A stretch of 51,461 nt of DNA, from positions 1 to 51,461 of the forward strand of contig CAWEDJ010000044.1 in the NCBI GenBank assembly GCA_963807635.1. Direction: 5' to 3'. The notes below the pieces were generated by a model that made no database searches, was not told where the DNA came from, and was given only the letters and a program-made list of their open reading frames with translations. The DNA is from an uncultured cyanobacterium (lineage in GTDB: Bacteria > Cyanobacteriota > Cyanobacteriia > Cyanobacteriales > Microcystaceae). Below, piece after piece: positions 13,895 to 17,169 of this stretch; the first letter of the stretch is position 1, and every line of letters starts with the position of its first letter. Position numbers and translations under genes: made by a program.

Positions 13895-13923
13895 AAAAAA
13901 AAGGGCAGTTATTAACTACCCTT
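13895..13923 (-). terminator. Terminator belonging to the psbD 3'-end relic
   Basis: Minus strand AAGGGTAGTTAATAACTGCCCTT plus T-run; near copy of 16058-16085. Confidence 0.75.
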
Positions 13924-13948
13924 CAAATCGAAAATCAACTTAATTGAT

Positions 13949-14058
13949 TTAGAGAGCATTACCTTCCTTCATTTAACAAAATGTTTTTGGTATAGAAGGT
14001 TTCAAATTCGGGATCTTCAGCGGCCCGTAATTCTTGGGATACAAAGTCATAGGCCCGT
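13949..14058 (-). pseudogene. psbD: Duplicated psbD 3' end with ~71-bp internal deletion
   Basis: 13964-14058 matches 16196-16290 at 90/95 nt ([31 protein letters not shown]), then jumps to GNAL*. Confidence 0.92.
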
Positions 14059-14062
14059 GAGT

Positions 14063-14107
14063 GCAATTTGTTTTTCAAGTTAGATTGATCCATCAAAAAG
14101 CGATCGC
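14063..14107 (+). repeat. Small HIP1-bounded dispersed repeat, copy 1
   Basis: GCAATTTGTTTTTCAAGTTA (20 nt exact) plus similar tail ending in HIP1; inverted copy at 47992-48042. Confidence 0.7.
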
Positions 14108-14253
14108 GTTTCAAAACTTAGTTATTATCAGGGCAATCCATTAATTAACCTGGCAAAAGTTGCGATCGCTGTCTTCTACTTCGGAAGAGTTGTCCGTATC
14201 TACTTAAAGTGATAGTTTTTATAAGCGAAAAATCTCATTTACATGATGAATTA

Positions 14254-15623
14254 TTATATTTTTTCTAGTCTGTTTTGAATTTTTGATTCTAAATCTTCCC
14301 AAGAATGCCCAAATTCATCCAAAAATAATTGCCATTTTTCTAACATAACTGGATTAGAATTAATTGTTAAATCAAATATTTCTATAAACGTACTTTCGCA
14401 ATCAATTAACTGGTTAGTATATCTACCTTTTTGATTGTGAATAGAGTCTTCCAAAAGCTTTATGACATGATTCTTCTTCTAGATAATTTTTAATTGGTTC
14501 AATGAGATTTAGGGCATTATTTCTACCACCAGCAAAGGAACCAGAATCAGTGAAAATATCTAAATTAATTGGAATTAGTTCTAAGATTCAACTCTTTTAA
14601 GTTTCCGTATTCTTTTACTTTTTCTATAAATTTTTTCTTATCTTCTGTCGCCATTGTTTTATAATTCTCCACAGCTTCTTCAGAAGTCATTTCACCAAGA
14701 AATACTAGTAAAGAGGTCACAAAGAAGTATGAAGAATCACTTTGTTCTAAAAAGGATTTAAATTTTTCTTTCAGTGACATGGAACAAAAAGGCCATAATT
14801 GAACGATTCTATATTTTGATAATATGCGATAAAGAAATTTATATCGATTTTCGTGGGTAGAGTCTAATAATTTAGTTAGTTTTGTCCCCTCTATTGTTTC
14901 TAAGATATTAGGATACTTTTGAAAAATAGACACAGCTACAAGAATATATCTATCAATATAATTTGTGGACTCCTGTTCTATATATAAAATATTTTTCAAT
15001 GATAACAGTAATAAATTTTCCACATACTTATCTGAATTAAATAAATGTCTTTCCCCTAAAATCTTTTTAACTCCTTCTATATCAGAGGGAAAATAATTAC
15101 TTTCAACATCACGGATTAGAGCGTCACCTGATGCTTTACCCATGATAGGAGGCTGACTGAGAACAACTTCTATTGCTGTTCTGATATGAGTTCGGGTAAG
15201 TTCTGGTGAAGGTTGAAAAAGAAGACCCTCAGAATCTAAAACAGGGTGGGCGCAGCGATGTCGATCTTTTTGAATTCTTTCTAGATGCTCATATTCTGTA
15301 TCAGTTATCATATGAATATCATCATGAGCATATCTTAAAATTTCTCTTTCCCATGATGCAATTTGCTTTTTATCAGAAGAATTTCGTATTTTATTAATTT
15401 CATCAATACTTATTTTAGCGGCATTATCCTTGTATAGTTCAGCAAGATAGCGAGTCTTTTGATAAAGATCATAAACTACTGCGATCCAAATGGAAACGAT
15501 GGCGGCCCTATATGCTTCCGCAAAATAAGAATTTACTGACTCTTGGGCATAGGCTCGAACATTAGGATCATCAATCGTTTGTACAAGTGATTCCAAATCT
15601 GCTAGTTTGCTGTATTTTGTCAT
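14254..15623 (-). CDS. HEPN-motif (RxxxxH) protein, candidate abortive-infection RNase; two apparent frameshifts near 14590 and 14475
   Basis: YRAAIVSIWIAVVYD...RIQKDRHRCAHP; reading continues DIFTDSGSFAGGRNNA and then joins ORF 14254-14454. Confidence 0.65.
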
Positions 15624-15691
15624 ATTGTTAGAAATTGAGTTGAGTTTTTTCTACGGCTACCATAGAGAGAAAATTCTATAATTGTAGATAA

Positions 15692-16006
15692 TTAAACTTG
15701 ATGGTAAAGAGAATAATCTAAATTAATTGAAGCATCCGTCATCGCATCTTCAACTGTGTCAGTCCCCAGTAACCAAATCGGATCTTCTTCTAGACTAACT
15801 TCCTGCTGAGATAAACTACTCTCAGAAGTTACATTAATAGCATTCGCCTTAACTAATTTATCCCTTAAAGCTAAAGTGACAAACTCATCTAAACTATTCG
15901 GCTTTTGAGTTTGAATAACTTCTTCTACCTTATTTAACAAATCTATCGGTAATGATAAAGTTACAGAGCGTGATATTGACATTGGAATTTCCTCAAGAAA
16001 TCTCAT
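15692..16006 (-). CDS. CopG/RHH-type antitoxin-like protein
   Basis: SVTLSLPIDLLNKVEE...SLDEFVTLAL; acidic tail DPIWLLG...DASINLDYSLY. Confidence 0.65.
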   Translation of the reverse strand: MRFLEEIPMSISRSVTLSLPIDLLNKVEEVIQTQKPNSLDEFVTLALRDKLVKANAINVTSESSLSQQEVSLEEDPIWLLGTDTVEDAMTDASINLDYSLYHQV

Positions 16007-16057
16007 AAGCTATTTTAACCATTTTTAGAGCGATCGCCGATTGCTAATTCAGCAAAT

Positions 16058-16085
16058 AAAAAAAGGGCAGCTATTAACCACCCTT
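16058..16085 (-). terminator. psbD intrinsic terminator
   Basis: Minus strand AAGGGTGGTTAATAGCTGCCCTT plus T-run. Confidence 0.8.
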
Positions 16086-16109
16086 CAAATCTAAAATCAA
16101 CTTATTAAC

Positions 16110-17169
16110 TTAGAGAGCATTACCACGAGGTAAAACTTCTTCAGGGAAAATAAAGTTTTCGTGGGGTTGATCCTGCGGAGCCATCCAAGCTCGCATTCCT
16201 TCATTTAACAAAATATTTTTGGTATAGAAGGTTTCAAATTCGGGATCTTCAGCAGCCCGTAGTTCTTGGGAAACAAAGTCATAGGCACGTAGGTTTAAAG
16301 CTAAACCAACGATACCAATGGAACTCATCCATAGGCCCGTAACAGGCACAAATAACATGAAAAAGTGTAACCAACGTTTGTTGGAGAAGGCAATACCGAA
16401 AATCTGTGACCAGAAACGGTTCGCTGTCACCATTGAGTAGGTTTCTTCCGCTTGAGTGGGTTCAAACGCACGGAAGGTATTGGCTTGATCGCTGTCTTCA
16501 AAGAGGGTGTTTTCTACGGTTGCACCATGAATAGCACAGAGTAGCGCACCGCCCAAGAATACCCGCAACTCCCATCATATGGAAGGGATTCAATGTCCAG
16601 TTGTGGAATCCTTGTAAAAACAGGATGAAACGGAAGATTCCTGCTACCCCAAAGCTGGGTGCAAAGAACCAACTGGATTGTCCCAAGGGGTACATCAAAA
16701 AGACGCTGACAAATACGGCGATGGGGCGAGAAAAGGCGATCGCGTTATAGGGACGAATGCCGACTAAACGGGAAATTTCAAATTGACGGAGCATGAAGCC
16801 AATCAATCCAAACGCACCGTGAAGAGCGACAAAGGGCCATAAACCACCGATTTGGAACCAACGGGTTAGATTTCCTTGAGCTTCGGGCCCCCAAAGGAAA
16901 AGTAGGGAGTGACCGAAGGCATCGGCGGGAGAAGAAACCGCAACGGTTAAAAAGTTAGCACCTTCGAGGTAGGAACTGGCTAAACCGTGAGTGTACCAAG
17001 AGGTTACAAAGGTCGTGCCTGTTAACCAACCACCGAGGGCCATGAAAGCGCAGGGGAATAGGAGTAACCCTGACCAACCGATAAAAACGAAACGATCGCG
17101 CTTTAGCCAGTCATCCAGGGCATCAAACCAACCTTGTTCTACTGGGGCGCGTCCGACTGCAATCGTCAT
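16110..17169 (-). CDS. psbD: Photosystem II D2 protein, monocistronic copy (no psbC); one extra G near 16553 splits the ORF
   Basis: MTIAVGRAP...[16 protein letters not shown]...[11 protein letters not shown] / [15 protein letters not shown]...[10 protein letters not shown]. Confidence 0.97.

Follow-up and report, generated by a model that had tools for sequence, protein, structure and literature searches.

A probable old insertion scar, formed without an integrase, at the cyanobacterial photosynthesis gene psbD2

Introduction

How does a second 3′ end of a photosynthesis gene come to lie downstream of the working copy, on the far side of genes that resemble antiphage defense? The question is raised by psbD2, the monocistronic D2 gene, in a contig of 51,461 nucleotides (CAWEDJ010000044.1 of assembly GCA_963807635.1; the whole stretch is hereafter the window) from an uncultured cyanobacterium of the Microcystaceae. 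A first-pass annotation had proposed that a 2-kb cassette, made up of a ribbon-helix-helix (RHH) gene and a HEPN gene, arrived from another lineage by way of the conserved psbD end, and that this would be an integrase-free route for spreading defense genes. Our results support an integrase-free insertion anchored in psbD2, in which the gene was restored and its old 3′ end displaced. Specifically, we consider it probable that the locus is an old scar, produced by homology within psbD2 on one side and an illegitimate joint on the other, with DNA from a related cyanobacterium.

Results

On the minus strand, psbD2 (17169-16110) is followed by a terminator (T1), a copy of the palindrome HIP1 (GCGATCGC) at 16030, an open reading frame (ORF) of 104 amino acids (aa), the HEPN gene, two further HIP1 copies at 14162 and 14100, the second psbD 3′ end, a second terminator (T2), and a convergent cupin gene (Table 1). 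Alignment and a hairpin scan confirmed this order along with the coordinates, repeats, and HIP1 sites as first annotated, and both T1 and T2 are terminator-like hairpins. The repeat consists of 95 nt at 95% identity (13964-14058 versus 16196-16290) and a 68-nt stretch of gene end and terminator (13896-13963 versus 16057-16124), the two parts being separated by a 71-bp gap. Such a duplication is far above chance, a BLAST search inside the genome giving E 6e-36. The cassette has a G+C content of 32%, compared to 41% for the genome, and a promoter scan returned 9 sites where 10.1 were expected. In agreement with the earlier claim, ORF and family searches found no integrase or transposase ORF between the psbD repeats in the window's genome (G000), and no recombinase there in G004, another species of the same genus whose neighboring core genes are 92 to 95% identical.

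Comparison with G004 revealed how the displaced end, or relic, has decayed. The relic of G004 is 145 nt long and starts at the counterpart of window position 16340; it exposes a 50-bp deletion in the G000 relic, located between two copies of GCCTATG. The duplicated piece originally started ~230 nt upstream of the stop codon (16340) and was ~280 bp in length. True homology between the two G000 copies is limited to 91 nt (13964-14054 versus 16196-16286) with four differences. Thus, four of the five synonymous sites reported previously are real, while the fifth, CGT/CGG, is no substitution because it straddles the 50-bp deletion. The reported ~71-bp deletion is likewise present, also in G004 and in a public sequencing run (X4), although its joint adjoins the AATGC microhomology rather than falling within it. 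The G004 relic carries decay of its own (AAA to ACA and a 2-nt deletion). Three of the four true differences (GTA, TTA, and AAC) are the states of the working psbD2 and psbD1 of G004, and the working allele of G460 likewise has the fourth (GCC). On these comparisons, the differences sit mainly in the working copy of the window and could post-date the insertion. We also considered the psbDC paralog as the source of the relic; this candidate was rejected on sequence, as the relic has a psbD2-type end and terminator with no psbC overlap.

G004 and G000 have in common the T1 flank, the pre-relic spacer, the joint, the 71-bp deletion, and the cupin flank. Between the same ends, however, the cargo of G004 comprises an RHH and PIN pair and two genes of 496 aa (ParA-like) and 182 aa. 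Because G004 keeps both ends, the joint, and the deletion around other cargo, the relic is, by this comparison, older than the cargo. The idea that the present RHH and HEPN block is what arrived is not supported, since G004 has other genes there and the HEPN gene is found in only 1 of 89 genomes of the family. Furthermore, the cupin gene and the region upstream in psbD are 99.6% and 99.3% identical between G000 and G004, whereas each is 81 to 83% identical to G001. Tracts of such identity flanking the cargo indicate that the block spread between species at a later time.

In G004, there are three copies of the terminator in direct order, with unrelated DNA straight after each U-run, and the psbD2 loci of different lineages part right after the terminator U-run as well. 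A third copy of the psbD terminator is also found in G000, on another contig (G000:C61:37841-37896), where the end of an insertion sequence (IS) abuts the old stop codon (CTAA) and a PMT-family glycosyltransferase gene is convergent with it. That psbD2 and the glycosyltransferase gene were ancestral neighbors was unconfirmed: the two are nonadjacent in G001, G002, G005, and G014, and the psbD2 end of G003 is unassembled.

Other states of the site were visible among relatives and public data. A donor-like form without relic exists in G001 (no relic in 7.7 kb) and on the metagenome contig L049 (no relic in 2.7 kb), each with the T1 flank plus an array bounded by HIP1. We compared four public runs with the window as contigs at 85% likeness, and the following was found among the contigs listed. 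A contig from X4 spans the 71-bp deletion joint at a depth of 146, so that the duplication is seen in independent sequence as well as in G004; the long form of the relic occurs in the same run. A second X4 contig of 5,265 nt contains another psbD 3′ piece with terminator (16059-16201; 143 nt, 14 differences), 383 nt past the promoter side of the cupin gene. In run X3, a 2,679-nt contig links the borders at 14218 and 16029 across other DNA, and contigs from the runs part from the window at 16029-16038, the left swap point. Run X1 has the HEPN gene with a further eroded relic (weak, with just 27 nt on one side), together with a 228-nt contig that joins the cupin flank (13773-13893) to a psbD end (16057-16163) in which 39 nt of the deleted segment are kept, with two differences per side. 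This contig could represent a cassette-free form or an undeleted relic, and it may precede insertion or follow pop-out. Accordingly, the regions downstream of psbD in relatives do vary in cargo, as anticipated, with X1 providing the candidate for a cassette-free, recipient-like state.

The duplication is uncommon. Two patterns made from the psbD 3′ end matched 74 and 71 of the 89 family genomes, yet an extra psbD end near psbD on the same contig was present in G000 and G004 only. The duplicate was found in one of 45 stretches downstream of psbD (that of G004; the set includes one psbDC and one stretch of only 418 nt), and a metagenome scan with the terminator yielded one locus. Third matches to the psbD patterns in G018, G434, and G442 were on other contigs or far off, the one in G018 being a full-length divergent copy. 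Since relics beside psbD are confined to 2 of 89 family genomes, insertion with a psbD relic is rare and lineage limited, and a general route for spreading defense genes is not supported.

Some related fragments were encountered elsewhere. In G014, an orphan 65-nt psbD 3′ end, whose terminator does not resemble the one native to G014, follows two HIP1 sites (L044:4585-4700; G014:C1:501584) and adjoins a gene for a 1,346-aa nSTAND1-WD40 protein, 3.7 Mb from psbD2; a donor was not found, as the only match among 401 genomes of the order was G014 itself. A decayed 56-nt psbD-like piece (79%) lies between glyoxalase-like and glycosyltransferase-like ORFs in G003 (G003:C677; L046:698-753). Finally, many genomes of genus g11 have small variable ORFs ~0.9 kb downstream of psbD2 without a psbD relic (L077-L097).

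HIP1 occurs 4,738 times in G000. At psbD2 and elsewhere, in two genera, arrays are chains of HIP1-to-HIP1 units that comprise spacers of 26 to 62 bp and gene units. For example, a XisH/XisI unit measures 802 bp from HIP1 to HIP1 in L049, where it is at psbD2, and in G014 and G460, where it is at other loci in another genus; the unit is 826 bp in G004, and the L049 and G014 versions are 93% identical. One family of 35-bp spacers had 19 matches in 7 of the 89 genomes, only in these two genera, and none in a viral scan. More than 10 units of 26 to 37 bp run head to tail from HIP1 to HIP1 in a single orientation in G014, between XisH/XisI and toxin-antitoxin-like genes (G014:C1:7462503-7467156; L120/L124). 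Across G000, there are no HIP1 spacings of 11 to 19 bp, an excess at 27 to 36 bp (101 versus ~56 expected), and few at 40 to 56 bp.

Breakpoints between the two species were often located at HIP1. When 433 kb of G004 (60 stretches, about one-tenth of the genome) was aligned to G000, we obtained 48 events, with 2 IS events dropped. For events of at least 300 bp, 13 of 34 ends were within 12 nt of an exact HIP1, compared to 6.5% for local flanks and at most 8.8% for intergenic DNA (p 3e-6); the other 21 of these 34 ends were not at HIP1. In smaller events, 7 of 58 ends were at HIP1. Clean examples include a 5.4-kb G004 insert with duplicated HIP1 borders and a 944-bp insert of two genes in G000. 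At psbD2 itself, the relic is preceded by a 43-bp spacer of which three more copies were found (G000 47991-48042, G004 C159, and G003 C18). Each of these three ends in GCGATCG(C/T), whereas the corresponding slot at psbD reads GCACTCAC in both species and is followed by psbD. The foreign joint thus coincides with a HIP1 slot, because the other spacer copies close with HIP1 there. This is a single event, however, and could reflect chance.

With respect to the cargo, the HEPN gene matches the PADLOC profile PD-T7-3 (E 9e-43 and 3e-47 over 344 profile positions, with no curated cutoff given) and PDB entry 9wxf (E 1e-24). Its R121-X4-H126 motif is invariant or nearly so in 17 homologues. Homologues are 455 to 458 aa in length (nearest, 455 and 458), compared to an ORF of 352 aa plus a tail in the assembly. 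PD-T7-3 has been renamed DARNA, described as an antiphage tRNA nuclease that is activated by single-stranded DNA and has an R117-X4-H122 motif (bioRxiv 10.64898/2026.02.22.705581). We infer that the gene is a PD-T7-3/DARNA-like defense gene, its function being a prediction. It resembles the described system in its N-terminal HEPN domain, the R-X4-H at a matching position, a length of ~455 aa, and the PADLOC match; it differs in being a distant cyanobacterial homologue that is split in the assembly, its activity, dodecamer, and activation by single-stranded DNA being putative. No D2 gene was found beside the homologues at 17 loci of other cyanobacteria in the available DNA, which was <1 kb downstream for six of them. 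With the gene in 1 of 89 family genomes and none of these 17 loci next to psbD, psbD is not the route by which the HEPN family spreads. In 7 of the 17 homologue genes, from distant cyanobacteria (L188-L204), HIP1 is located at most 91 nt after the stop codon, and exactly 16 nt after it in four.

The 104-aa ORF, annotated earlier as an RHH gene, has no Pfam match and falls with RHH_1 clusters of the Atlas at 0.88 to 0.89, which is weak evidence for an RHH-like antitoxin. G004 has an RHH gene followed by an overlapping PIN gene (PIN E 8e-13). The cassette of the window contains no such RHH-PIN (VapBC-like) pair, the PIN gene being missing from it. The other two cargo genes of G004 (L033:5744-7793) are possibly an undescribed defense pair; one encodes the 496-aa protein, which has a ParA-like ATPase at its C terminus, and the other the 182-aa partner, which has no family match.

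The G000 assembly is rich in errors: of the 108 long ORFs also present in G004, 37 show a net frameshift, including psbB and psbD. In psbD, there is a +1 near 16555, and this extra base (16552-16556) is missing from the public-run contigs, as is the extra base at 14587 in the HEPN gene. For these reasons, the psbD +1 near 16555, G16728, and the +1 insertions in the HEPN gene are probably assembly errors. In addition, psbD2 is the only psbD in the assembly, from which the psbDC operon is missing. Beyond the cupin gene, a nested IS cluster at 8993-13139, with IS1-like pieces, an IS3-like pair, and DDE_Tnp_1-associated ORFs, interrupts the locus beside the cupin promoter.

Table 1. Features at the psbD2 locus of the window
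Feature	Position	Strand	Basis or comparison
psbD2, monocistronic D2 gene, working copy	16110..17169	-	ORF list, alignment; intact 352-aa copy in G004
Proximal copy of duplicated segment (last ~230 nt of psbD2 plus terminator)	16058..16342	-	Alignment to long relic of G004
Terminator T1, 11-bp stem and U-run	16058..16086	-	Hairpin scan
Post-terminator flank ending in HIP1 (16030-16037); left swap point of cargo array	16030..16057	-	Common to relic-free G001 and L049
RHH-like putative antitoxin, without PIN partner here	15692..16006	-	PIN partner in G004
PD-T7-3/DARNA-like HEPN gene (predicted), R121-X4-H126, split by two +1 insertions	14254..15623	-	PADLOC and PDB matches
Right border of cargo: conserved module end, HIP1 14162, 62-bp spacer, HIP1 14100	14100..14213	-	Same border with other cargo in L049
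43-bp spacer module and foreign joint (slot 14057-14064)	14057..14107	-	Comparison with three other spacer copies
psbD2 relic, coding part; 50-bp deletion inside, 71-bp deletion at end	13964..14060	-	Alignment
Relic stop codon and terminator T2	13896..13963	-	Alignment, hairpin scan
Cupin gene, convergent, flanking relic	13326..13784	+	Family search
Transposase fragment, DDE_Tnp_1-associated, first of IS cluster	12852..13139	-	G004 instead runs on to third terminator and glycosyltransferase gene

Discussion

Our results are most consistent with one-sided integration of linear DNA. Natural transformation would have brought in a donor molecule with psbD2, T1, and a HIP1 array. A RecA crossover by homology in psbD upstream of 16340 would have joined one end, while the second joint would have formed illegitimately at 16340, at the position of a HIP1 palindrome in the donor array. 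In this way, the incoming 3′ end would complete psbD2, and the resident one would be pushed downstream together with its terminator. An earlier event of the same type may have placed the cupin gene and displaced a terminator, T3. After insertion, cargo would have turned over, mostly at HIP1, with the HEPN gene replacing the PIN toxin late, and the whole block could have moved between species by ordinary homologous replacement from psbD to the relic-cupin flank. A linear donor predicts a structure without circle or integrase, unrelated DNA after each terminator, and the existence of both donor-like and recipient-like forms. The anchor provides homology (psbD2 is 93 to 97% identical among congeners), the far joint connects nonhomologous DNAs (spacer to psbD interior, at 14057-14064), and homologues of comEC and dprA are present in the genome. 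The flanks of the two copies fit a donor origin for the proximal one and a recipient origin for the distal one; their alleles are mixed.

A number of observations weigh against this model. The joint slot (14057-14064) agrees with HIP1 in no more than 5 of 8 bases, HIP1 is absent from the RHH/HEPN junction, and the ends of BLAST hits and alignments may lean toward conserved HIP1 words in the breakpoint test. No psbD remnant was found before T3 in G004 (score 20, with shuffles scoring up to 33), and the second relic of X4 is known from one table row only. The X1 contig is short and could instead stem from an undeleted relic or from a deletion that later took place between T1 and T2. Moreover, the earlier claim that synonymous differences prove two lineages at insertion is not supported, as the working allele of G004 differs from the window relic at a single one of 84 coding sites, with mixed terminator sites; as far as sequences can tell, no allele test separates donor from recipient, and the genome's own psbDC is absent from the G000 assembly. 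Finally, G000 has six tyrosine-recombinase matches on other contigs, and relatives have some, too.

The near-identity of relic and working alleles in G004, which makes a foreign allele unnecessary, also speaks for an event within one lineage. Unequal or slipped recombination between a downstream HIP1 and the interior of psbD2 could have duplicated the segment intrachromosomally, with later deletions removing the second flank, and deletions are indeed frequent at the site (50 bp, 71 bp, and the erosion in X1). Yet these deletions would have had to start exactly at the terminator U-run, twice (T2 and T3), and it would be left unexplained why G001 and L049, which lack a relic, have the T1 flank but not that of T2. 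We therefore regard an intrachromosomal duplication as unlikely, though it fares best among the alternatives.

The same structure would result from a Campbell-type single crossover of a small circle that contained the psbD2 end, terminator, and cargo, in which HIP1 had been joined to the psbD interior in the donor DNA. Pop-out via the repeats would then be possible, and the joint in X1 fits excision via the 68-nt end repeat. Because a circularization step has to be added, however, and no joint diagnostic of a circle was among the listed contigs of the four runs, we find this scenario improbable. Somewhat more improbable still is a site-specific integrative element that carried a copy of the psbD 3′ end as attP, with the integrase acting in trans or since lost. 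A repeated psbD 3′ part downstream of a restored gene is what such an element should leave, it would resemble the 3′-end repeats of tRNA-anchored additive islands (PMC4898812), and tyrosine recombinases do exist elsewhere in G000 and its relatives. Against it, no recombinase lies between the repeats in G000 or G004 or beside the island, and the contig of the window has no PF00589 match. Furthermore, the duplicate measures ~280 bp, its carriers number 2 of 89 family genomes, and the visible starts of relics differ (16340, 16201, and 16177), a spread that erosion may explain. One group of three to four adjacent tyrosine-recombinase matches in G000 (G000:C28:108082-111726) resembles what we take to be a recombinase trio. 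Despite the frameshifts in 37 of 108 long ORFs of G000, an artifact of its error-prone assembly is refuted as the source of the duplication by an independent genome, as relic and deletion are the same in G004 and in the X4 contig.

If the linear-donor model is correct, psbD2 offers a natural and well-sampled example of one-sided integration into a core photosynthesis gene, in which forms resembling donor and recipient, a double relic, and eroded relics can all be seen. Of wider relevance could be the link to HIP1, in that HIP1 coincides with the illegitimate joint as well as with 13 of 34 gene-sized event ends, which suggests a direct and testable role in gene acquisition. A bolder reading, which we offer as speculation with the balance tilted well against it, gives HIP1 two roles in this group of cyanobacteria: it would supply one-sided integration with a second end that is already in place, and it would be the site at which defense and toxin-antitoxin modules are exchanged within a pool that resembles an integron but has no recombinase. 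Together with other conserved genes, psbD2 would then be a serial entry gate for the arrays of other species, with a displaced tail for each addition.

Taken together, the scar appears to be of a known kind. Homology-facilitated illegitimate recombination with serial displacement of 3′ ends was proposed for the effector-immunity arrays of the type VI secretion system (T6SS) in V. cholerae and for Rhs orphan ends (PMC5361080). The psbD2 locus has the same conserved upstream anchor, nonhomologous far end, downstream shift of the old 3′ end, serial events, absence of an integrase, and later spread through ordinary homologous recombination. It differs in its anchor, a core photosynthesis gene that exchanges its end for an equivalent one; in the gain, which is downstream cargo rather than a new toxin tip; and in the far joint, which is in a HIP1 slot. 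The additive flexible genomic islands at tRNA and tmRNA genes of Alteromonas (PMC4898812) are also hotspots of varying cassettes, with part of the target gene repeated beyond the insert and near-identical cassettes across species. In contrast, psbD2 is a protein-coding target in one small lineage, with no integrase or site-specific step shown. HIP1 itself has been linked to site-specific recombination, to SDR5 insertion inside HIP1, and to better transformation in the accessible parts of PMC4390886, PMC5861425, and bioRxiv 10.1101/2024.09.10.611283, with HIP1-linked recombination in print in PMC13756078 as well; SDR-like repeats were not found outside Nostocaceae, per the consulted text of PMC5861425. 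Relative to these accounts, the difference is that whole genes, such as the 802-bp XisH/XisI unit, and spacers of 26 to 62 bp extend from HIP1 to HIP1 and recur across loci and genera. Our literature search, which left subscription papers mostly outside, returned no paper on psbD as an anchor, on displacement of its 3′ end, or on gene arrays with HIP1 borders in this group.

Integron arrays consist of small accessory genes in shuffled units with a repeated bounding site, where intI is beside attI and attC sites form hairpins. The psbD2 locus is similar in its small accessory genes, its shuffled units, and its repeated border site, but there is no integrase by the array and the border is the 8-bp palindrome HIP1 instead of an attC hairpin. 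What is new relative to known systems would be serial events at a photosynthesis gene, with both the joint and the turnover of cargo tied to HIP1.

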